The notes beneath the pieces were generated by a model. That model was not told where the DNA came from and ran no database searches. It worked only from the letters and a program-made list of their open reading frames with translations. From positions 13,075-77,074 of the forward strand of contig JAHQWH010000226.1 of NCBI GenBank assembly GCA_029856105.1: a stretch of 64,000 nucleotides of DNA, read 5' to 3'. Both the position numbers and the translations under genes were made by a program. Positions 13,063-30,982 of the stretch are shown in pieces. The stretch is from Promethearchaeia archaeon. GTDB taxonomy: Archaea; Asgardarchaeota; Lokiarchaeia; Sigyniarchaeales; SOKP01. Position 1 is the first letter of the stretch. Each line of letters begins with the position of its first letter.

Positions 13063-15489
13063 TTATTGAAATTTCTTTGTTTTTTTTAGGTAAATCATTA
13101 CTAAACCGATCGTACTCATTGAGAGAATTCCAAGAGTTAGTAATAGAGGGTATCCGGGGATACCTCCCGGAGTTGTATCGCTGCCTATATATACGTATGA
13201 CATCGCCATAATAATTGAGATCGCACCTGAGCTACCTTCTACTGGAAATTTGATAGTCAAAGAATTATCAGCGTAATCATAAACAAACATATCCGCTGCT
13301 TCCGGAGGAGCTGCTTCCCATTGGTTATTACCACTCATGTTCCATGCCCAAAAGGTAAGGTTATAGTTATTTAGGTCAAAAGTATCATCAAATTTTATGT
13401 AGAATGTTAAGTTCTCTAATCCCGTACTGTTGCTAATTAAAAGATCGTTATAATAAAGGACCGTTCCATTGGTGATCGAAGTATTTGTAGGATTATAAGC
13501 TAAAAGCGCATTTATTACTTCTATACCGGTATTGTTAGTAATGATTTCAATATTATTTACTGCTATTTCACTTACAGCATCACTGTTGACGGAAATACTG
13601 TTTGTTCCAGAATGGAGCGTTTCGTTATGCATTGGATATAATGTCATATACATCCAATCAGTGTCGTCTCCACCAGGCATGTTCATCCAGCCTCCCATAA
13701 ATGTTATTTGACCTGTAGATATGTCTATATATGTATCATATTCTTTGTCAAGCGTTGAATTTCTAAGATTAGCGCGACCTTCAGTGAATGTCATCTCATC
13801 AAACACGCTGCTTAACATTCTTAAGAGATCCTCAAAATCTTCTCCCGTAAAACCTAGAGGTATAAATAATGGAGGAGATGTGCCCCCAAACATAGCGGTA
13901 GGTGAGATCGGCCAATATGTATTTGCTTCAAGGAACAAATCGTCTCCTTTATATTGCCAAGTTCCTGTTTCTTCATCAAATTCTTCAAAATCAGCAATGA
14001 CTACCTTAAAGAATTGCAATTCAGGTTGTCCAGGTATTGTCATGAAGAGTCCACCGCTATCCTGTTCCCATTCTGTCAAATTAGCGAATTCACCATAAGT
14101 AGCGATAATTGTTGCTCTCAAATATATCTCACCGTCTCGAGAATTTTGTTTATAATAAATAACATCGCCTATTTCAACATCCCATTCGACTAACGTCATG
14201 TTTTTTATCTCGTAATATATTAAATCTGAACCATCCTGCATTAAAAATGATTGAGTTATTCCAGTTGATTTTTCCATTACAATTTTAACTATAGAATTAC
14301 TCGAAGAATTTTGCATTATAAATTCAAAATTACCATTCTCAAGTAAAATAACCTCAGTAAATGGCATTTCCATGATATGTAAGGTGTCAAGGTTCCACAT
14401 AAATTCTATGTCTTCTCTAAGTGTATTATTGGGAACGAGTAAGTTGAACATCGAGGATCCAGATCCAAAATACTGGGGATAAAAATTATTTGCAATCCCA
14501 ATAGGAATATCAGAATCTTCTAAAGAATATTTTGTTCCGTCCCATTCTGAAATGTTAGCATAAACTACTTCGAAAATCATTGGAATCGTTTCTTCAGAGA
14601 AACTGTTATATGTTTTCGGGAGCATTATCTCTGTAATATCAGTAATATAAAATTCGAGATCGTAATAATTACCTTCTTCTGTAAAATCGTAGTGTATAGT
14701 GTCTCCAATATTTACGCCCCATTCAATTTCGTCTATGATGTCGTAATCATAAACTCTCTGCATTGTGAAGTTAAATAACATTGGATCTGGCATGTAGACC
14801 ATAATATATCCATCAGCATATTCTGCAACGCCATTTGTTGAACCAAATTCCACATAGACATAAAAATCATCAGTCGTATTTGTAAATGTAATGCTATCAT
14901 CCCCCGTATTGGATGAATAACTATCAAATTGATTGAATGGTCCCATAGAAAGAGGGTTATATAACGATTCGTTAAGGATATCTGCTAGTACATCGACTTC
15001 TAAATTGTTTGATCCATTTAAGGGAAGTATGTATGGAGCTGCACTCATCCATGCTCGGTATTTATGATGAATGGAATCTGAATTATTATATCCAAAAAGA
15101 GCGAATTCCTCGGGAGAACCATACGGTTCTAATTCGTCGGTTGTAAGATTATAATAACATTGAGCAGCGTTTACCCGGGAAAATTCGTTTAAACCTAAAT
15201 AATCTATAGTAACATTTTCAATATAGGTTATGTTATAAATAAAAATGTCTCTAAACATCATGGTAACCTCTCCGCTTGACGCGTTTGTCATTACAATCTC
15301 AATTTCCCAATAAAGTTCCTCTCCAACATCTACGCCCCAATGCCAACCGTTATTTGCGTGTTCTTCTGGGACATATGGTCCAGCTTTAATCGTCGTAACC
15401 AGAAAGCTCAAATTTATAGCTATAGTTAATCCTATAAGCAAAACTAAGATTGCGTGTTTTTTTGTTCTAAAATTATTCATAAATTTCAA
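13063..15489 (-). CDS. large acidic surface glycoprotein with Loki-CTERM-like anchor
   Basis: Signal peptide, three W[GD]VxxG[ED] domain starts, many NxS/T sequons, C-terminal IPGY-TM-basic tail. Confidence 0.85.
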   Translation of the reverse strand: MKFMNNFRTKKHAILVLLIGLTIAINLSFLVTTIKAGPYVPEEHANNGWHWGVDVGEELYWEIEIVMTNASSGEVTMMFRDIFIYNITYIENVTIDYLGLNEFSRVNAAQCYYNLTTDELEPYGSPEEFALFGYNNSDSIHHKYRAWMSAAPYILPLNGSNNLEVDVLADILNESLYNPLSMGPFNQFDSYSSNTGDDSITFTNTTDDFYVYVEFGSTNGVAEYADGYIMVYMPDPMLFNFTMQRVYDYDIIDEIEWGVNIGDTIHYDFTEEGNYYDLEFYITDITEIMLPKTYNSFSEETIPMIFEVVYANISEWDGTKYSLEDSDIPIGIANNFYPQYFGSGSSMFNLLVPNNTLREDIEFMWNLDTLHIMEMPFTEVILLENGNFEFIMQNSSSNSIVKIVMEKSTGITQSFLMQDGSDLIYYEIKNMTLVEWDVEIGDVIYYKQNSRDGEIYLRATIIATYGEFANLTEWEQDSGGLFMTIPGQPELQFFKVVIADFEEFDEETGTWQYKGDDLFLEANTYWPISPTAMFGGTSPPLFIPLGFTGEDFEDLLRMLSSVFDEMTFTEGRANLRNSTLDKEYDTYIDISTGQITFMGGWMNMPGGDDTDWMYMTLYPMHNETLHSGTNSISVNSDAVSEIAVNNIEIITNNTGIEVINALLAYNPTNTSITNGTVLYYNDLLISNSTGLENLTFYIKFDDTFDLNNYNLTFWAWNMSGNNQWEAAPPEAADMFVYDYADNSLTIKFPVEGSSGAISIIMAMSYVYIGSDTTPGGIPGYPLLLTLGILSMSTIGLVMIYLKKTKKFQ

Positions 15490-21167: not shown

Positions 21168-21434
21168 TTATGAGCTGATCAATTGAAAGAGAATGTTTGC
21201 GTGTGGTATAAAGAATTGGTCTTTGGTTTTTATCACCACAGTATGAAAGTATTCAGCCAAACCTAAGAATCCACGAATTACAGATTCGTCTTCCTCAAAT
21301 TTAAACACAACCTTCGCTATGGCCGCACTACCACTAAAAGTGACTTTATCGTAAACCCGCTCATCGATCAATGGAATTTTTAACTCATTTACAATTTCAT
21401 AAACTCGTTTAATAAAGAGTTCTCGCTTTGGAAT
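21168..21434 (-). CDS. small hypothetical protein (88 aa), probable ATT start
   Basis: Frame stays open upstream of the called TTG (21371) to a TAA at 21438-40; AGGTG lies 7 nt before ATT at 21434; gives (M)PKRELFIKRVYEIVNELKIPLIDERVY... Confidence 0.7.
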   Translation of the reverse strand: MPKRELFIKRVYEIVNELKIPLIDERVYDKVTFSGSAAIAKVVFKFEEDESVIRGFLGLAEYFHTVVIKTKDQFFIPHANILFQLISS

Positions 21435-21729
21435 ACTTTAACACCTATGCATTATTAAATAATAATTATTAAATTTTCAAATGAAATATGATATATAATA
21501 TTATAAGATTTGACACTTTTAATTGTTTTTTTTTTATAGAGTTCAAGAAAATCGAATAAATAAATCTAACAAAAGAAAGTTCAATCATTTATATTTTTTC
21601 GATATACCTATATTCAAGTATTATAAAAAATTAAAAATAAAAATATAAATTAATATAATACAATTACTACTTTAATAATAATAAATTATTCTACTTATAA
21701 TAGAAAAAAATTAGAGGAATGATTGAATA

Positions 21730-22431
21730 TTGGTTTCTAAGGAATACAAAAAGATAGAGCGCGTCGTTAATTTTATGAAAAAAGGTTTACAATCATTAAG
21801 TGACGATCTAGAAGACACAGTTAGCGGAATAAACGATTTTATAAAATCGTTAAATAAAGCGTTAAAGGATTTGAAAGATGTTTCATTAAAACCAGAGGTT
21901 CAAACTGTTAGTAGTTCCTCTAAACAAATTGTTGCTCCAGCAAGTGGAACGGCAAAGACTGCTGCTGCGAGCACATTATTTAGTTTACTTAGCGGTAGTT
22001 CCGGACCCGTTCAACAAGCACCCGCTGCTACTACAGCTAGCTTAGCTCCTGCAATTGGTGTCCCTCCCAAGAAACCAGGAAAAAGGAGTCCTCCAACAGC
22101 TCCAGTAGCTGGAGGACCTCCAAAGAGACCCGTAAAGGGTGGCCCTCCAAGGGCTCCAGTGGGCGGCGCCCCTCCTAAGCGTGCTAATCTACCACCCGCT
22201 CCAAAATTACCTCCAACATCTGGTGGACCTCCACAAGCTCCTAATGCGGGAGTTGTTCAAGCACCATCATTTGCTAAAAGACCTGCACCTCCCGCCGCGC
22301 CCGTAGCAGGTGCCCCCCCTCGACCCGCAGTGCCCGTAGCAGCACCTAGCGCAGGAGGCGGCTTGAGTTCTTTACGTGATGAAATGTTAGAAGAGTTAAA
22401 TCGCCTGAAGAAAATAATGAGAGGCGAATAA
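21730..22431 (+). CDS. coiled-coil / Pro-rich / C-terminal WH2- or VASP-like helix protein (candidate actin regulator)
   Basis: N-terminal heptad helix, ~160-aa stretch with no D/E containing G[GA]PP[KRQ] repeats, C-terminal GGGLSSLRDEMLEELNRLKKIM; GAGG upstream of TTG. The CDS is secure; the function is inferred. Confidence 0.8.
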   Translation: MVSKEYKKIERVVNFMKKGLQSLSDDLEDTVSGINDFIKSLNKALKDLKDVSLKPEVQTVSSSSKQIVAPASGTAKTAAASTLFSLLSGSSGPVQQAPAATTASLAPAIGVPPKKPGKRSPPTAPVAGGPPKRPVKGGPPRAPVGGAPPKRANLPPAPKLPPTSGGPPQAPNAGVVQAPSFAKRPAPPAAPVAGAPPRPAVPVAAPSAGGGLSSLRDEMLEELNRLKKIMRGE

Positions 22432-22513
22432 AAACAATTAATTTCTCATAATTTTTTATTCTAACCACTATAATACGCAAAATTTTTAATCCTAAAACAA
22501 GAAGACATTACTT

Positions 22514-23260
22514 GTGGAGAGAAAAGATTTTCTTGTAACTGAAAATGAAATTCCTATTGTTGTTCCTAAACGTTTAATGGTATTTGCGGGTCACCCAGAT
22601 GACGAAATTGTTTCATGTGGTGGAACAATTCTTAAATATCAAGCATTAGGCTCTGAAATCATTGTTGTAGTAGCTACAAGTGGGTTGGGTGGATACGCTA
22701 AAACGGCCCACAAGGAAGATATCTTAGAACAGCGAAAGCAAGAACTTGATTTAGTCCGAACTGCTTTAAAATGTAGAGTTATCGAATTAGGATACTCTGA
22801 TTTGGAGGTTAAAAGAGAAATTATCTCTGAAGTGACAAATCTTATTAGAGACATCCGCCCTCAAGTGATTCTATTACCTCACTTCTCGGATTTTCATAGA
22901 GTTCATAGAACATTATCTTTAATTACAAGAGAAGCTATTTATCATTGTTCGACGGGAAAAGCTTATGGAGGACACGAGAGGAACTGGACTCCGCTAGGAG
23001 CGTATTATTACGAATCTCCTTCTTGTAAATTTCAATATATAGAAGGTTCTGTCTTTATAATAGTCAATATTGAAAAATATTGGGTAGAAAAGAAAGAAAT
23101 TTTTAATCGAGTTTATAAATCTCAGAAAGAAGTGTTAGAGCGAGTTTTGGATTGGGCAGAAGATACGTCAATTTTACGAGGTAACGAAATTAATTCAAAG
23201 TATGGAGAAGCTTATATTCCTATGACAGAATACACTCCTTTGAAGATTTTATTAGTGTAA
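22514..23260 (+). CDS. PIG-L / LmbE family N-acetyl deacetylase
   Basis: GHPDDE..CGGT motif; RxxE; DFHRVH as a variant of HxDH. Confidence 0.9.
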   Translation: MERKDFLVTENEIPIVVPKRLMVFAGHPDDEIVSCGGTILKYQALGSEIIVVVATSGLGGYAKTAHKEDILEQRKQELDLVRTALKCRVIELGYSDLEVKREIISEVTNLIRDIRPQVILLPHFSDFHRVHRTLSLITREAIYHCSTGKAYGGHERNWTPLGAYYYESPSCKFQYIEGSVFIIVNIEKYWVEKKEIFNRVYKSQKEVLERVLDWAEDTSILRGNEINSKYGEAYIPMTEYTPLKILLV

Positions 23261-23329
23261 AAATAGATAGGTTAATTGGAGAATTCAAATAAAGTTATAT
23301 TAATTAAATATTGTATAATAATAGAAATA

Positions 23330-24445
23330 ATGGGCAATCTTACTGTTGTTTTGGATATTGGGCAGTTCTCGACTAAGGCCGGGTATGCTGGGGAAGATAT
23401 GCCAACTCAAATCTTTTTTACGATAGTAGGAAAACCTAAGTATAGACAGATCGATTACGAATACGCGGGTATTAAACAAGACGAATATTATGTAGGAGAC
23501 GAAATCCAATCAATAGGCTTGTATAAAGTTTTTTATCCAATTGATAAAGGAATAATCCAGGACTGGCTGTCGTTTGAAAAAATAATTGATTACATTTTCT
23601 ACAATTTGAGAGTTGATCCAAGTTTAGTCAACGTTTTATTCGCCGTCCACCCATTGTTTCCACACGGGGATATAAAACGGCTATTTGAATTATTTTTAGA
23701 AAACTACCAGTGCAACGCGTTTTATCCCGTTTTAGACTCTATGCTTACTTTATACGCGGGAGGATTTCAAACAGGGTTAGTGGTTGAAATAGGGGATAGT
23801 ATCACGAGAATAGTGCCAATTTACGAGGGATACAAGTTAGATCATGCAGTAAGGATACTTGAGATTGGTGGAAGAACTTTAACCAAGTATATGGAAAAAA
23901 TATTAGGTGAAAGTGGCTTTTCAGCTGACTCTTCAATTAGAAAAGAACTGGTAAGAGCCCTCAAAGAAAAAGCTTGCTTCGTCTCGCTCGATTATAAAGA
24001 AGATTTAAAAAGAGCTGAACAGTATGAAAAAGAGTATTCTTTACCGGATGGTTCTACCATTTCTTTGAGTAAAGAAAGATTTGCCGTGCCTGAGCTTTTT
24101 TTTAATCCATCATTAGAATTGGAAGAAGATTCTTTAACAGAGGCTATTATGGATGTAATCGACATGTGTGACGTCGATATCCGAGCAGACTTATTGAACA
24201 ACATTTTTTTATCGGGAGGATCGTCTCTATTTCCGAATTTCAAATCTAGAATGTATCAAGAATTAGAATTTGAATTAGCACGGAGGAAAAAAAAGAACCA
24301 AATTATCAAAATAATAGCACCTAGGGAACGAGTATTCTCTGTTTGGGTTGGTGGTTCAATCTTAGCTACCATTCCTGAATTTCAAAGTAATTGGGTAACG
24401 CGTGCAAAATATTTTAAAGATGGTATTCCTGAGAATCTTTTATAG
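23330..24445 (+). CDS. actin-related protein (Asgard actin family)
   Basis: LDIGQFSTKAGYAGED, IVPIYEGY, KEKACFVSLD, YSLPDG, LSGGSSLFP, IKIIAPRER.FSVWVGGSIL are collinear with actin; start placed at ATG 23330. Confidence 0.95.
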   Translation: MGNLTVVLDIGQFSTKAGYAGEDMPTQIFFTIVGKPKYRQIDYEYAGIKQDEYYVGDEIQSIGLYKVFYPIDKGIIQDWLSFEKIIDYIFYNLRVDPSLVNVLFAVHPLFPHGDIKRLFELFLENYQCNAFYPVLDSMLTLYAGGFQTGLVVEIGDSITRIVPIYEGYKLDHAVRILEIGGRTLTKYMEKILGESGFSADSSIRKELVRALKEKACFVSLDYKEDLKRAEQYEKEYSLPDGSTISLSKERFAVPELFFNPSLELEEDSLTEAIMDVIDMCDVDIRADLLNNIFLSGGSSLFPNFKSRMYQELEFELARRKKKNQIIKIIAPRERVFSVWVGGSILATIPEFQSNWVTRAKYFKDGIPENLL

Positions 24446-24569: not shown

Positions 24570-24953
24570 GTGGTGTTTTTAAATATGGAATTAGGTCCTC
24601 CAAATAATAGTTTTGAACAAACTAAAATCCTGAAAAAATATTACAAACCAGATTACTCTCAATTGTTTAATAAAATTAAAGAAATTAAAGCCCCTATCAA
24701 AAAAGAAATATTAATCGGGCTAATTGATGGCGTTTGGCATTCGGAATTAGATTTAATAAGGATCGCAAAAAAACAACAAAGATACATGGGTGCCGTTACT
24801 CTTGGAACGATGATCCATTCTTTAAATAACAGTTTAAAAAACGACTATGTTGAGAAGAAAGTCGTGAATGGAAAACTATTTTACAAAATTTCTGACAATT
24901 ACGTAGGTCTAACTCGAGCTGCTTATAACAAATATAATTTCAAAATGGATTAG
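24570..24953 (+). CDS. putative winged-helix DNA-binding protein
   Basis: Basic 127-aa protein; helices followed by YVEKKVVNGKLFYKIS wing hairpin. Confidence 0.6.
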   Translation: MVFLNMELGPPNNSFEQTKILKKYYKPDYSQLFNKIKEIKAPIKKEILIGLIDGVWHSELDLIRIAKKQQRYMGAVTLGTMIHSLNNSLKNDYVEKKVVNGKLFYKISDNYVGLTRAAYNKYNFKMD

Positions 24954-24994: not shown

Positions 24995-27184
24995 TTATCT
25001 TTTCACGCACTGTTCATTTAAAATTTTATGAGTTTCGCAATTAGAACAAAACCCATTAAAAACAGAAGCGTTCTTAAAGCTATCGTTCCAACATTTTGGA
25101 CAAATATAATACGGTAAAGGTTTACCGTTCTTTCGTTTCACGATTTTAAAAGTATTAAAACCACATATTGAGCAGAATGAGGCTTTTAATATAGTAATTC
25201 TACCCGTTTTGGGAACGGAAAGGTAAGTTTTGCAATTTGTATCTGAACATACGAGAAATCTTTTCTTTTGTGAGGTCGTAATTAGCTTCATTGGATATTT
25301 TTTACAGGTTGGGCAATTAGCAGTAGTTTGTGGAAACTTTTTTTGTTTAAACTCCTGTTGCATTGCCGTTTTTAAATTTGTTTTAACGCTATCAAATCTT
25401 AAAGTAATAGCATTTCTGTTGTTAAGAAATTTATCAAACAATTCAAGAAAAATTTTTTTAACAATTTTTATCACTTCTTCTTTAGTCTTTCTTTGTTCCT
25501 TTATGTCTTCGAGTAATTTTTCCACAAATCGCGTAAATTCAGGTTTTAAGAAGGGCAGCCATACTTTTATTAACTCTATTATTATAAATTTGCCCCACTC
25601 CGTAGTTTTGAAATGATTTTTGTTAGTTCGCAAGATTAATTTTCGATCTATAAGAATTTTAATTATAGTTGGACGAGTCGATTTGGTTCCTAAATGTTCT
25701 CTCTCCATTAATTTCAAAAGAGTAGTATCAGAATATTTTGGGGGGGGCTGAGTTTCCTTAGCGTTTAATTGAATATTTTTAATTGGAAGTTGTTTTGCTT
25801 CGATTTCTATCGTTGGTTGATAGCTTTTCTTTAAAAAGGGTGCGATTTCGTAAAAACCACTTGAGACTAACGAAACCAACCGCGATGTAAATGGTTCTAC
25901 TTTTATTGATATTTTTAAAATTGTCCTCGATTCTTCTGCTTGTTCTCCGAAAAGAGCTAAATAATGTCGAGCTAACAAGTCGTAAACTCTTTTTTGAATG
26001 TTATTTTCAAATTTAGAACTATTTTGTTCCAAGCTCTCTAAAGGAGTAATGGGAGGATGATCTCCGGCGTCAACTTTCCCAATTGTAGGCATTAGGCGTT
26101 TTTTAGTTAGCAATTTTAAAGTGTAAGTTCCATAGTTAGTGTGAAGTTTGAGCTTATCTAAGTATTGAGTATGGTTAAAGTTTGCTTGGTATTTATCGCT
26201 ATCAGTCCTAGGATAAGAAATTATCTTATTTAAGTAGAGCGCGTTCATGGCGTTCATGGCAGCATTTGCGCTAATCTTTAGCCTCCTAGTTAATAAAACT
26301 AGCGCCTTCGAAGTATTTAAAGGCGTCGGAGGGTTTATAACATTAGTATTTTTACTAGTACTCAAAACTACAGCAATTTTTTCATTTCTTATTTTCTGAT
26401 GGATATTTTTTGCTTCAAGTTCTTTCTCTTTAATAAAAGGGTTCTTATCGTGGAAGGCTTTTATTATATGGGTTTTATGGCTTAAATTCGCTTCTATTGT
26501 CCAATATGGTTCAGGTACAAATCGCTCTATTTCTTGGTCCCTTAAGAATATTAAATAGAGCAAAGACGTCTGTACCCTTCCTATCGACACAAATTTAGCG
26601 TTAATCTCGTTTAATAAAGGTCTAAACGTATTTGTGACCTCTCTCGTGCTTGAAAACCCGATTACTGCGTCAATAATGGCTCTTGCCTCGCCTGTTTCAC
26701 CCCAACTCCACTTGGGATTTATCAAATTAGAATATTTAGAAACAATCTCTTTTTTTTGTAACGAACTTAACCACAGCTGACGCACTTTAATAGCTTTATT
26801 AGCTTTCTTTACAAACGGTAAGGCATCAAAAAGCCCAATGTTACATCCCTCAATATCCGCATCGGTACCGATTACGCATTCGTCGCATAATTTAGCATAT
26901 TCTTTTAACGCGCTAATATATGGTCTAGCATAACTTATGGATGCTTTTTCAATCGAACTTGGATTAGTAATTATTTCCCTAGGATTAGATTTCGTCCAGC
27001 TTTTAAATTGATCGGTGTTTTTATACTCTAAAATATGTCCTCGAAGAGGAACAACGTAAATATCTTTAGAATTTACCCGATATACTTTCAAGAATTTTGT
27101 TTTGTTTATAATCGTTACAGGACCTAATGCTTCAGCTATAGCCTTTGCTGCTTTATTTTTTTCCGATATTATTAAAATCGTCAT
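24995..27184 (-). CDS. topA: type IA DNA topoisomerase with C-terminal Zn ribbons
   Basis: ISEK, TDADIEG TOPRIM, SIGRVQT, catalytic ISYPRTD, DHPPITP, LGTKSTR, multiple CxxC. Confidence 0.95.
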   Translation of the reverse strand: MTILIISEKNKAAKAIAEALGPVTIINKTKFLKVYRVNSKDIYVVPLRGHILEYKNTDQFKSWTKSNPREIITNPSSIEKASISYARPYISALKEYAKLCDECVIGTDADIEGCNIGLFDALPFVKKANKAIKVRQLWLSSLQKKEIVSKYSNLINPKWSWGETGEARAIIDAVIGFSSTREVTNTFRPLLNEINAKFVSIGRVQTSLLYLIFLRDQEIERFVPEPYWTIEANLSHKTHIIKAFHDKNPFIKEKELEAKNIHQKIRNEKIAVVLSTSKNTNVINPPTPLNTSKALVLLTRRLKISANAAMNAMNALYLNKIISYPRTDSDKYQANFNHTQYLDKLKLHTNYGTYTLKLLTKKRLMPTIGKVDAGDHPPITPLESLEQNSSKFENNIQKRVYDLLARHYLALFGEQAEESRTILKISIKVEPFTSRLVSLVSSGFYEIAPFLKKSYQPTIEIEAKQLPIKNIQLNAKETQPPPKYSDTTLLKLMEREHLGTKSTRPTIIKILIDRKLILRTNKNHFKTTEWGKFIIIELIKVWLPFLKPEFTRFVEKLLEDIKEQRKTKEEVIKIVKKIFLELFDKFLNNRNAITLRFDSVKTNLKTAMQQEFKQKKFPQTTANCPTCKKYPMKLITTSQKKRFLVCSDTNCKTYLSVPKTGRITILKASFCSICGFNTFKIVKRKNGKPLPYYICPKCWNDSFKNASVFNGFCSNCETHKILNEQCVKR

Positions 27185-27397: not shown

Positions 27398-30300
27398 TTA
27401 CTTTGGTAAGGTAAAACTAATCTCGGCTCCCTTATCCCTTCCTTCTGATTCCACCCAGATTTTACCACCGTGTACTTCAATCATTCCTTTACAAATATAA
27501 AGACCTAATCCACTCCCTTTCTCAAAAGCAGAATAGCTTTCAGTAGCTTGACCAATTGTAACAAATTTACCAAATAATTTCTCAATTTCTTTTAGAGTTA
27601 ACCCTTTTCCGTGGTCCTTTATTTTAAAAAGAAAATTTTGGTTTTCTTCCAAAACCTTAATGTTAATTATACTATCGTTAGGAGAAAATTTCACGGCATT
27701 TGATAATATATTCGAGAAAACTTGCGCGATTCTAAATCGATCCACTATTAGTTCAAGATCCTCGGAGACATTTAAGTTTATAGCTATTTTTTTTTGATTT
27801 ATTTGGTATTCTAATTCAGAAAGACAATCTCTTATTATATCGTAAATGTTCTCGACTTTCTTAATTATCTCTATTTTGCCCGCATCAATTTTCATTACAT
27901 CCAATAACCGATTTATGTAATTTTCCAAACGAGCTACGTTGCTTAATACTCGATTTAAATCTTCTTTAATATCATCTTTTAAATCTTTCTCTCTTAATAA
28001 TATTAAATCGATATAACCCCCAACAGAAATTAACGGTGTTTTTAAGTCGTGAGCGGCGATGCTAATAAAATCGGTTTTTAATCTATCTAATTCTTTTAGT
28101 TCTATATTTTGCTGCCTTAAGATTCGCTCGGATTCTTTTAATTTCTCTTCTGCGATTTTTTTATCGTTTATATCTTGTATTATGGCCTGAATCATTAATT
28201 CACCACCAATTTCAATAGTGGATAATTCAGATTCGACCCAAATCATTTTGTTATCTTTATTAAATATTTGTATGGCTGAAGGTTTCATCACGATATTCGT
28301 CGGGTCTCTCTTACGATCTAGTTCTTGAAGCGTTCTCAATCCTGGTTTTGTTTCTGAAGGAAAAATGTTTGAAAGTTTTAAATAATTCTTACCTATAAGA
28401 TCATCTTTTTTAAAACCGAACAATTTAGAAGTTGTAGAATTAATATCAATAATTTTACCATTAGTGTTTAAGAGCGCAATACTGAACGGTGAGTTTTCAA
28501 ATAAATGCCGATATTTCCGTTCAGATTCTCTTAACTCCTTCGTTCTTTCAAAAATTATTTTCTCAAGTTCTCTATTTAATATTTTTAATTCTTCTTCAGA
28601 CTTCTGTAATTTTAAGGCAGCTTCTTTCTTTTCTGTAATGTTCTGAATTAAGACTTGTATCAAAGTTTCATTTCCTAACTTAATTTTAGACGCTCGTATG
28701 TTAATCCATTTTTCTACTTTATCTGCGCGAGTCATTTTAAATTCCAATGGTTTTACTCTCTCGTTCTTGATAAAGCTTTCAAGTTTGCTTTTTAAAAGCG
28801 GAATAAAATATTCTGGACGATCGAATAAAGTTAAAAATTCTATAAAATTCTTTCCAATAAGGTCATCTCTCTTGTATTCTGAGAGTAATATATTCATAGT
28901 CGAATTACAGTCAATTATTACTCCCTTTAAATTCACTATCCATATGGAAAACGGAGAGCTTTCAAACAAGTGTCGATATTTTTTCTCCGACATAATTAAG
29001 TTTTGTTCCGCTTGTTTACGGGCGGTTATATCTCTGGCAAAACTTATAGCTCTATTAATTTTTCCGTCTTTTTTCAAAGGAACCGCATTTATCTCATATT
29101 CATAAATTTCACCTAGAGTGTTTTTTGCAGTAGTTTCAAGATCTTTTATTATTTTACCTGCTCTCAGTTCATTAATTTTAGCCTTTAAATCTTCGAGATT
29201 TTCTCCAGCAAAAAAATCTAGAACTTGTTTATTTTTTGCATCGTTTAAACTAATTTTTGTTTTCTCTAGAAATGCTTGATTGGCATCTAATATGTTTCCT
29301 TTTAAATCAGTGAGATATACTAAATTAGGGCTGGCATTAAAAATTGTGTGGTATTTTTCTTCTGATTCTTTAATTCTTTTATCGGCTTCTTTGCGTTCTG
29401 TAATATCCCTTCCGATAATTATTCCTTTAATCTTACCATCTTTATCTTTAAAAGTGTTTCCTTTAACTTCTATCCATATCCAACGATTATTTTTATGTTT
29501 AATTCTTACCTCTAAAACGCCTTTGCCCGTATCGAGACCTTCAACCATCGTTTTAATCGCAATTTTTTTATCGTCAGGATGAATTATTGCTAGAACTGAT
29601 TTTCCAATAATTTCCTTATAGGTATAACCTAATGTCCTTTGCCACGGTTGTTCGTTTACGTATTCAAATTGAAGGTTTTGATTTAAAATACTAATCAAAT
29701 CATAAGCATTCTCTGATATCAATTCGTATCTTTCTTCTGAGCGTTTAAGTTTTTCTTCTAAAACAATTTTCTCGGTAAAGTTTTGCACCATTCCAAAAAA
29801 ACCAGATTTAGCACCTTTAGCATCGTATTTCAAATATCCTGATGAATTTACTACGATTTTTTGGCCATTTTTGTGAAAAAACTCAAACTGGAAATTGCGT
29901 TGCCCTACCTCTGTTTTATAAACTTGGTTATAGAAGTTAAGCACTTTTTTCCTATTGAATTCATCTGACATATTTTGATAACTTTTCCCAAGTAATTCTT
30001 CTTTTGAATAACCCCCCATTTCGCAAAAGGATTCATTTAAAAATGTAAAATTTCCTTTTAAATCAACTTCATAATATCCTTCTTTAATGTTTTCTAATAT
30101 GTTCCTATATTTAATTTCGGATTCTTTTATCTTTTGCTCAGCTTTCATTCTATTAGTGATATTGTTATAAGTGCATAAAATTCCTCCTACGATATCCCCT
30201 TCGAGATTATGAAGCGGTACTCGATTTATCTCAAACCACGCTTTGCTTCCATCGCTTAACATCCACGATTCAATCTTCTCTTCACTTTGATTATTTTTCA

Positions 30301-30982
30301 TAACTCTTTTTTCATTTTCTTGAACAGATTTTAAGTTAGCTTTTGCCCATGGTAAGTTTTCATCTTCATCAGTTTTTCCGACAATAAAATCAGGATCTTC
30401 AATATTATTTACTAAAGCAAAATTTTGGTTACAACCCAGATATGTTAGATTTTTATCTTTCCAATAAATTAATTGAGGGATATTATCGATAACAGAGTCT
30501 AACATCTCACGCGATCTTTGAAACGATGTTTTTTCATCTTTAGTTTGCAATAGTTTCCAGAATCGAAGCTCTGGCATGGTTTCTGCTAATCTCCTTAAGT
30601 TAGATTCCCGCTTAAACCAGTCTTCTTCTTTTTGTTTAAATTTAGAGATGTCTCGAGAAATTATTAATATTTTAGCTTTTTCAGTGTCGCTAATAAATCG
30701 TTTTCCTTTTAATTCGTAATAAACATATCCTTCATCTTGACGAATCCTTATCTGCTCGCTTGCTTTTCCCGCTTTTAAGATGTTTTGAAGAAAATTCAAA
30801 CCACGATCTAAATCGGCGTAATAAAAATTATCTAATATTTTTTGAGCTAAACAGGAGTAGCCTAATTTCTTCAAATGGACTTCTTCATTAACGTATTCAC
30901 ATTCAAAGTTTTCATTTAAAATAAAAATTAAATCATCAAAATTTTCTATAAGAATATCTCCAAAATCGGAAACTGATGCCAT
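27398..30982 (-). CDS. cytoplasmic multi-PAS sensor histidine kinase
   Basis: About 7 PAS/PAC repeats (DITERK-type linkers), AHDLKTPL H-box, NAVKF, DHGKG, GSGLGL. Confidence 0.95.
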   Translation of the reverse strand: MASVSDFGDILIENFDDLIFILNENFECEYVNEEVHLKKLGYSCLAQKILDNFYYADLDRGLNFLQNILKAGKASEQIRIRQDEGYVYYELKGKRFISDTEKAKILIISRDISKFKQKEEDWFKRESNLRRLAETMPELRFWKLLQTKDEKTSFQRSREMLDSVIDNIPQLIYWKDKNLTYLGCNQNFALVNNIEDPDFIVGKTDEDENLPWAKANLKSVQENEKRVMKNNQSEEKIESWMLSDGSKAWFEINRVPLHNLEGDIVGGILCTYNNITNRMKAEQKIKESEIKYRNILENIKEGYYEVDLKGNFTFLNESFCEMGGYSKEELLGKSYQNMSDEFNRKKVLNFYNQVYKTEVGQRNFQFEFFHKNGQKIVVNSSGYLKYDAKGAKSGFFGMVQNFTEKIVLEEKLKRSEERYELISENAYDLISILNQNLQFEYVNEQPWQRTLGYTYKEIIGKSVLAIIHPDDKKIAIKTMVEGLDTGKGVLEVRIKHKNNRWIWIEVKGNTFKDKDGKIKGIIIGRDITERKEADKRIKESEEKYHTIFNASPNLVYLTDLKGNILDANQAFLEKTKISLNDAKNKQVLDFFAGENLEDLKAKINELRAGKIIKDLETTAKNTLGEIYEYEINAVPLKKDGKINRAISFARDITARKQAEQNLIMSEKKYRHLFESSPFSIWIVNLKGVIIDCNSTMNILLSEYKRDDLIGKNFIEFLTLFDRPEYFIPLLKSKLESFIKNERVKPLEFKMTRADKVEKWINIRASKIKLGNETLIQVLIQNITEKKEAALKLQKSEEELKILNRELEKIIFERTKELRESERKYRHLFENSPFSIALLNTNGKIIDINSTTSKLFGFKKDDLIGKNYLKLSNIFPSETKPGLRTLQELDRKRDPTNIVMKPSAIQIFNKDNKMIWVESELSTIEIGGELMIQAIIQDINDKKIAEEKLKESERILRQQNIELKELDRLKTDFISIAAHDLKTPLISVGGYIDLILLREKDLKDDIKEDLNRVLSNVARLENYINRLLDVMKIDAGKIEIIKKVENIYDIIRDCLSELEYQINQKKIAINLNVSEDLELIVDRFRIAQVFSNILSNAVKFSPNDSIINIKVLEENQNFLFKIKDHGKGLTLKEIEKLFGKFVTIGQATESYSAFEKGSGLGLYICKGMIEVHGGKIWVESEGRDKGAEISFTLPK

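Follow-up and report, generated by a model that had tools for sequence, protein, structure and literature searches.

A gene at positions 21730..22431 (plus strand) of a 64,000-nucleotide stretch of DNA from a Promethearchaeia archaeon of the Asgard phylum encodes a protein of 233 amino acids that probably represents a new type of flexible adaptor, the docking helix of which is portable. The whole stretch, referred to here as the window, covers positions 13,075 to 77,074 of the forward strand of contig JAHQWH010000226.1 (assembly GCA_029856105.1). The protein, called the adaptor in the following, is composed of a helical head, a proline-rich arm and a C-terminal end helix, and it is a member of a phylum-wide Asgard family that is undescribed in the family libraries, the sequences of solved structures and the literature that were searched. 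The same end helix is found on small GTPases and cysteine-rich proteins, which together with the adaptor probably converge on one hub. As judged from sequence comparison, what is new here is a register-level match, with counts and controls, of the end helix and of a proline motif to the tails of the organisms' own ESCRT-III proteins, and it is this match that would point to the ATPase Vps4 as a tentative candidate for the hub.

The adaptor gene starts with TTG, and the coordinates given include the stop codon. The TTG start is correct because residues 2-15, which lie ahead of the first internal methionine, are kept in the homologues. AlphaFold2, run on an alignment of 26 rows, predicts three helices (residues 4-50 with a pLDDT of ~90, residues 80-87, and residues 212-230 with a pLDDT of 79-94) and disorder elsewhere. 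The head (residues 4-50, 21739..21879) is a single long heptad helix of 47 residues according to the model, the alignment and a heptad scan; 77% of its a/d positions are hydrophobic and it is nearly invariant within the family. It is followed by a basic and disordered proline-rich arm (21898..22353). From E56 to D217, i.e., over 160 residues, neither Asp nor Glu is present, and this acid-free segment contains 23% Pro, 19% Ala and 11% Gly and has a net charge of +17. Five G[GA]PP[KRQ] units begin at residues 128, 137, 146, 165 and 194, and the number of repeats in the arm differs among orthologues. Three further motifs were located: a short helix motif (residues 75-89, 21952..21996) with the core LFSLLSG, which reads LF.[ML]L.G or LI.LL.G across classes, the invariant LPPAPKLPP (residues 154-162, 22189..22215), which is of the form LP.[AV]P and in this resembles the LP[ST]VP motif ahead of the end helix of Asgard ESCRT-III proteins, and PSFAKRP (residues 179-185, 22264..22284), which is likewise invariant in the alignment. 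The tail (residues 209-233, 22354..22428), which was delimited by alignment, AlphaFold2 and profile search, contains a GGG hinge and the amphipathic end helix 212-230. The adaptor has no Trp, and its C-terminus lies three residues past the end helix, without an acidic stretch. An earlier reading made from the letters of the DNA, here called the first-pass annotation, had described a heptad head, an acid-free proline-rich arm with recurring G[GA]PP[KRQ] units and proline runs of PP pairs only, and a terminal helical motif; in this three-part layout, with five units located and only PP pairs in the arm, it agrees with both the sequence and the AlphaFold2 model.

The adaptor gene is more than a chance open reading frame (ORF), as seen from its 202 clusters of homologues and its constrained motifs. 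These clusters, collected at E<=0.01, all derive from Lokiarchaeal/Promethearchaeota assemblies and none of them contains a Pfam domain. An alignment of 26 members, which are 66-85% identical to the query, revealed six invariant or nearly invariant elements between repeats of variable number, namely the head, TVS.SSK, the LFSLLSG helix, LPPAPKLPP, PSFAKRP and the final 25 residues. A survey across genomes was made with a profile derived solely from members of the window's taxonomic family; it matches 117 of the 134 genomes of this family and 14/14, 3/4, 3/3, 1/2 and 2/2 genomes of other families of the class, and several other classes were also matched in a scattered manner. All distant matches carry a proline-rich arm and the same end helix, and their heads are either soluble-helical or transmembrane (TM), with a TM helix and a coiled coil placed ahead of the arm in some other classes (L117, L118, L191, L192). 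Across 13 tails from 11 families L215, E218, M219, E222, R225 and K227 are invariant, and L226 is nearly so. The whole protein has no match among the PDB sequences at E<=10, and Pfam searches with the head gave just weak sub-threshold matches such as DUF948 (E 0.009-0.045). Look-alikes in the ESM Atlas of the head and of an 88-aa protein encoded next to the adaptor were limited to their own cluster and to unrelated ParA-like fragments. Orthologues are present in two cultured Lokiarchaeal species.

A HMMER search with the tail profile against 1.84 billion representative proteins gave 56 matches at E<1e-3, none of which is eukaryotic. They include, besides adaptors, proteins that carry the helix once or twice behind a Ras/Roc-type GTPase domain (Pfam), proteins in which a CPxCG...CCxC domain is preceded by two to three tandem copies, one protein that has three of them, an LRV-repeat protein bearing them at its two termini and a TM-anchored adaptor fused to a further domain. 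A metagenomic protein of 549 aa (P0269) comprises a TM helix, a complete adaptor and a C-terminal extension of ~280 residues; the extension is TIR-like by eye, and an artefact of gene calling or assembly is possible. The genome from which the window originates encodes a second carrier of the helix (G000 contig C108, 3212-3700, plus strand, ~157 aa), which contains one copy followed by a CPxCG...NH...IPCCxCFKK domain that belongs to no Pfam family, and this CPxCG...IPCCxCFKK domain recurs downstream of the motif in many Asgard proteins. A word-indexed search for longer carriers, done with residues 190-233, found none, and the HMMER profile search later found some. The gene neighbourhoods of the carriers P0255 and P0245 were uninformative. 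Since the motif is common to such different and unrelated proteins, it is most simply read as a docking element for one hub rather than as a private ligand of the actin-related protein (ARP) encoded downstream of the adaptor. That the tail is particular to the adaptor is not supported, as the same helix is present on GTPases and Cys-rich proteins.

The resemblance of the tail to MIM1, an interaction motif for MIT domains, was noticed first, and the ESCRT-III proteins of the genome were examined afterwards. Both Snf7-family proteins of the genome end in a helix of the adaptor-tail register; one of them shows E-hydrophobic-x-x-E-L-N-[KR]-L-K like the adaptor, and the other shows a near variant. 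Among the 4,085 ORFs of >=100 aa the pattern [LM]..E[LI].[KR]L[KR] is found within the last 22 residues only in the two ESCRT-III proteins and in the adaptor, and ELN[KR]LK at any position only in the adaptor and one ESCRT-III protein. Five other Asgard genomes supplied 13 ESCRT-III proteins whose sequences had not been used in writing the pattern, and 8 of them fit its class form. Within the window's family, 24 orthologous ESCRT-III tails vary very little (ELE.EL.[KR]LKS). Ahead of them stands LP[ST][VA], an element that in sequence recalls the LPPAP of the adaptor. Comparison of the adaptor tails with the ESCRT-III tails by hhalign resulted in a P value of 6.3e-4 over 19 columns in the same register at a probability of 28%, and four control comparisons gave P values of 0.048-0.28. 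The MIM1 pattern with hydrophobic residues at positions 0, 4 and 7 and K/R at position 8 fits M219, L223, L226 and K227, which are invariant or nearly invariant phylum-wide. In Vps4, the MIT domain of which is encoded in this genome on G000 contig C8 (2326-2568), helix 2 of this domain hardly varies within the class. The C-terminal helices and proline motifs of Asgard ESCRT-III proteins have a published interpretation, obtained by modelling (Lu et al., 2020, PMC7240154), in which they are ligands of Vps4 MIT that resemble MIM1 and MIM2. The adaptor itself was considered as an ESCRT-III subunit and rejected, because it is devoid of the Snf7 core domain (PF03357 unmatched); the two Snf7 proteins of the genome are encoded elsewhere.

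Leaving the choice of the hub aside, we lean towards a general mechanism in which the protein acts as a flexible tether. The head would fix the protein in place, either by oligomerising or, in other lineages, through a membrane anchor, and it might work together with the co-inherited 88-aa protein. The proline-rich arm would supply reach and the end helix would dock onto one strongly conserved hub. The best single guess for this hub, which we put forward tentatively, is the MIT domain of the Vps4 ATPase or another MIT-like domain, because the C-terminal part of the adaptor appears to copy the Asgard ESCRT-III tail, with LP.[AV]P and then a helix of the same register. The adaptor and the other motif carriers would then recruit Vps4, or compete for it, at the places to which their other domains direct them.

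Several observations weigh against Vps4 as the hub. The eukaryotic MIM1 consensus (D/E)xxLxxRLxxL(K/R), taken as given in the literature cited by PMC7240154, is fitted at only 4 of 6 positions, with Arg at position -3 and Glu at position 3. The adaptor helix possesses conserved hydrophobic residues, the invariant L215 and L/M220, that are missing in the ESCRT-III tails, and the motif sometimes lies internally or in tandem, a less common arrangement for MIM1. A hidden Markov model (HMM) of the adaptor tail ranks the ESCRT-III ORFs 866 and 1839 of 24,581, and the HMM of the ESCRT-III tails ranks the adaptor 68 of 4,085, neither being significant; the hhalign probability stated above is low, and the regular expressions were composed after the sequences had been seen. 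Finally, the adjacency of adaptor and ARP in the window's family, described below, is explained under Vps4 only by inherited gene order. When the tail was modelled in complex with the MIT domain of Vps4, in a run without controls, the score was 0.01 against a mark of 0.32, a result that counts neither way.

Lokiactin is the second candidate for the hub, and an unlikely one. WH2 motifs and the C helices of WASP dock in the barbed-end groove of actin, and if the adaptor is an actin regulator, the end helix would occupy this groove of Lokiactin and, in the window's family, also that of the ARP. We consider this improbable, and we are equally sceptical of a role as nucleator, elongator or membrane-actin linker that an oligomerising head and the basic arm would confer. 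The proposal goes back to the first-pass annotation, which had read the tail as a WH2 motif with resemblance to the VASP tetramerisation helix and the protein as a nucleation-promoting factor dedicated to the ARP. The conservation of the tail that such a function would entail is indeed observed, with the final 25 residues being invariant or nearly so in the family and the key residues fixed phylum-wide. The identity of the tail as WH2 or VASP was not upheld. PF02205 (WH2) and PF08776 (VASP_tetra) were matched neither by the whole protein (E<=0.1) nor by the 13 tails (E<=10), in searches whose HMMER filters can miss short motifs, and the tail profile compared with all PDB chains retrieved no WH2, thymosin, VASP or arcadin chain or other actin binder but only coiled coils above E 0.06. 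The helix-linker-LKK[TV] layout of WH2 was rejected as well: residues 212-230 are modelled as one continuous helix that includes LKKI, no linker separates the helix from LKK, and the spacing is three residues short. LKK[TV] is not conserved, as L/I and the first K are kept, followed by K, R, E, A or S and then by I, L or Y. Membership in Ena/VASP was rejected with EVH1 and VASP_tetra both unmatched in the Pfam scans, and membership in the WASP/WAVE VCA group with the lack of Trp and of an acidic terminal stretch.

Other lines of evidence are in favour of actin. The layout of the adaptor would parallel that of Ena/VASP and WASP, and its tail presumably resembles the F-actin-binding segment of VASP, in which a Gly run is followed by L..EEM...L.RR.K. 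The tandem motif copies in other proteins are reminiscent of tandem-WH2 nucleators. An archaeal precedent is provided by arcadin-2, the C-terminus of which binds the hydrophobic groove of crenactin (PMC5173319). Lokiactin is universal in Asgard archaea (PMC9834061) and the adaptor is nearly so. Moreover, an Arf GTPase was enriched in the co-immunoprecipitation of Lokiactin (preprint 10.1101/2025.11.30.690169), and GTPases bearing the motif exist, be it the same protein or not. Against an actin regulator stands that the profilins of Loki and Odin were reported not to bind polyproline (PMC8410842), and the arm contains PP pairs only.

The genomic linkage to actin speaks for both sides. The actin homologue of the window (23276..24445, plus strand, likely ATG start at 23330) matches PF00022 with an E value of 4e-90 and 303 bits. 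It ranks third among the five actin-family matches of the genome (297 bits in the genome-wide scan vs 442 and 427 for the top two) and shares 42% identity with the Lokiactin-like gene of this genome (contig C74, 18410-19522); on these sequence grounds it is a divergent paralogue, the ARP, separate from Lokiactin. Another actin-family gene of the genome (L004, G000 contig C12, 47665-48642, minus strand) lies in an ORF of 507 aa, the actin fold of which is broken near the C-terminus by a long insert with many CxxC pairs that is zinc-ribbon-like in appearance. Between the adaptor and the ARP, and co-oriented with both, lies a gene for a PIG-L/LmbE-type deacetylase (22514..23260, plus strand, Pfam E 1e-23). 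The gap from the adaptor to PIG-L is 82 nt, and that from PIG-L to the ARP is 15 nt to a TTG and 69 nt to the likely ATG. The first-pass annotation had correctly placed the adaptor two genes upstream of a co-oriented actin homologue. The ARP is followed by a gene for a 127-aa protein that belongs to no Pfam family (24570..24953, plus strand), which is located 3' of the ARP in 72/72 related loci and resembles a winged-helix protein by eye, and then by genes for a type IA topoisomerase (24995-27184, minus strand) and a multi-PAS histidine kinase of 1,194 aa (27398-30982, minus strand), both being part of the syntenic block.

Linkage was counted in 80 related loci from species-level genomes, apparently all of the window's own taxonomic family. 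The order is constant, with the adaptor, an optional PIG-L gene, the ARP, the 127-aa gene and the topoisomerase on the opposite strand. In 72 of the 73 loci that have sufficient downstream sequence the ARP is co-oriented with the adaptor within 6 kb, an argument for an actin-related function. Of the 72 ARP-bearing loci, 45 have PIG-L between the two genes; the rest lack it, and there the adaptor-ARP spacing amounts to 129-617 nt. PIG-L is an optional insert, by insertion or deletion, in an otherwise fixed order and stands outside any fixed module. As the whole block including the topoisomerase is syntenic in this family, the adjacency of adaptor and ARP may represent no more than inherited order. 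Outside the family, 15 loci that represent nine other families, three closed genomes among them, were inspected, and over ~9 kb around the adaptor none contains an actin homologue of any kind. The ARP paralogue (50-52% identity) was seen elsewhere only in the sister family of the same order, and in two closed genomes of this sister family the ARP orthologue is 45 kb and 263 kb away from the adaptor; three genomes that are more distant offer as best match to the ARP only sequences at the level of Lokiactin (44-45%). The linkage to the ARP that the first-pass annotation had relied on is thus real within the window's family and was not seen in the loci beyond it, and its dedicated pair of a nucleation-promoting factor and an ARP does not agree with an adaptor family that is phylum-wide and an ARP paralogue that was found only in the window's order. 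The ARP could at most be a lineage-specific extra client of the adaptor. In the sister family's closed genomes G135 and G138, 19 kb and 10 kb separate the 88-aa gene from the ARP orthologue, and the adaptor is 24-263 kb from the 88-aa gene, a layout that gives the impression of a cluster in which companion, adaptor and ARP were ancestrally together and which was later dispersed.

A further account, likewise unlikely as judged by itself, is that the end helix or the head binds the 88-aa companion or another conserved Asgard protein, with the likenesses to ESCRT-III and to actin binders being convergent; among the candidates for the hub, the odds left over by Vps4, Lokiactin and self-pairing would fall to these proteins. 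The companion gene (21168..21434, minus strand), which was delimited by homologues and AlphaFold2, is divergently transcribed and located 295 nt upstream of the adaptor. No ATG, GTG or TTG is present at its conserved N-terminus; the frame opens after a TAA with the first codons AGT ATT and is open and conserved back to the ATT at 21434. The first TTG yields just 67 aa, the version given in the ORF list, and the homologues comprise 88-91 aa and begin with M(P/A)K+ELF, so that either ATT serves as start codon or the assembly contains an error. Of 70 loci from the window's family, 61 have the companion next to the adaptor; in loci of five other families it is adjacent or within ~3 kb, and the arrangement there is divergent, convergent or tandem. 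It is the only neighbour of the adaptor that recurs across classes, a point in favour of a companion hub, the remaining neighbours in distant lineages being housekeeping genes (tRNA-splicing endonuclease, adenylosuccinate synthetase, methylase). One further distant neighbour was judged by eye to be a ribose-5-phosphate isomerase. The AlphaFold2 model of the companion is confident (pLDDT 92) and its fold gave no clear match in structure comparisons (Foldseek E>=0.15, VIA-align Z<=4.4), and the protein occurs in all parts of the window's class and also in several further classes. However, it was not found in several adaptor-bearing families (0/3 and 0/5 genomes), which precludes it as a universal partner of the invariant tail, and in three closed genomes of the sister family its gene is 24-263 kb away from the adaptor. 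The idea that the companion is restricted to adaptors with a soluble head was rejected, as two genomes hold both a TM-anchored adaptor and the 88-aa gene. Contigs of a metatranscriptome library that are >=99% identical to the window extend over the companion gene, all of the adaptor gene and its junction with PIG-L, and they also include the 3' half of the ARP. They leave gaps, e.g., at 21517-21669 and over most of PIG-L (run X11), to which no weight is given; DNA carry-over into this library is possible and the contigs cannot demonstrate a single transcript.

Least probable is self-association without any separate hub, with the end helix being a short zipper by which adaptor, GTPases and Cys-rich proteins assemble mutually on the anchored adaptor as landing pad: a wide hydrophobic face (a, d, e and g positions), top PDB profile matches that are coiled coils including GCN4 zipper constructs with E.ARLKK[LM], the occurrence of the motif on several unrelated protein types and in tandem, and the likeness to the VASP tetramerisation helix pointed out in the first-pass annotation would suit it, but the helix of ~19 residues (2.7 heptads) is short for a stable zipper, R216 occupies a core position in the best heptad register, the invariant charges E218, E222, R225 and K227 suggest recognition of a specific surface, VASP_tetra is unmatched and every PDB match lies above E 0.06.

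No group is known to be more closely related to the eukaryotic host cell than the Asgard archaea, and the adaptor family is almost universal in this phylum and strongly constrained. We know of no Vps4 clients named in published work on Asgard archaea other than the ESCRT-III subunits, and the Asgard actin regulators named in published work are profilins and gelsolins only. If the hub is Vps4, a MIT-MIM recruitment network broader than ESCRT-III would predate the eukaryotes. If the hub is actin, the adaptor would represent a missing class of nucleators or linkers. It is doubtful that the end helix is an Asgard-wide actin-docking motif, i.e., an archaeal functional counterpart of WH2 that is common to the adaptor, the small GTPases and the Cys-rich proteins; were this the case, adaptors that are oligomeric or anchored in the membrane would tie Lokiactin filaments or nucleate them, and the GTPases would plug straight into the actin skeleton, constituting a pre-eukaryotic wiring of GTPase signalling to actin.

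Among the known systems, Ena/VASP, WASP/WAVE and WIP show the same order of parts as the adaptor, with an oligomerising helix, a proline-rich region and a short C-terminal helix rich in L, E, K and R. In contrast to Ena/VASP and to the WH2-containing nucleation-promoting factors, the adaptor lacks EVH1, WH2, VASP_tetra and the acidic-Trp element, contains PP pairs only and has a variable LKK. Arcadin-2 from Pyrobaculum (Izore et al., 2016, PMC5173319) and the adaptor are both small archaeal proteins with a C-terminal segment as the working part, and their genes adjoin that of an actin homologue, in case of the adaptor in one family only. If actin is the partner, the helix of the adaptor would likewise dock in a hydrophobic groove. 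No sequence relationship between the two emerged from the PDB profile search, arcadin-2 has no proline-rich arm, and the adaptor family is mostly encoded away from actin genes.

The tails of the Asgard ESCRT-III proteins (Vps2/24/46 and Vps20/32/60; PMC7240154) share with the adaptor a terminal amphipathic helix that follows a disordered, proline-bearing segment. The adaptor shares the register of the helix with this genome's own ESCRT-III proteins, and an LP.[AV]P motif lies upstream in both, whereas the distance from the proline motif to the helix is ~50 residues in the adaptor and ~12 in ESCRT-III. IST1, which bears both MIM2 and MIM1, is a eukaryotic parallel. The logic of the adaptor is also that of the bacterial division tethers, in which an anchor and a flexible proline-rich spacer are combined with a small conserved docking element: FtsZ has a short conserved C-terminal peptide, and ZipA consists of a membrane anchor, a P/Q-rich linker and a binding domain. 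The TM-anchored Asgard adaptors have a ZipA-like order of parts with anchor, linker and docking element; the sequences are unrelated to those of FtsZ and ZipA, and in the present family it is the adaptor that carries the docking element, in the form of a helix.

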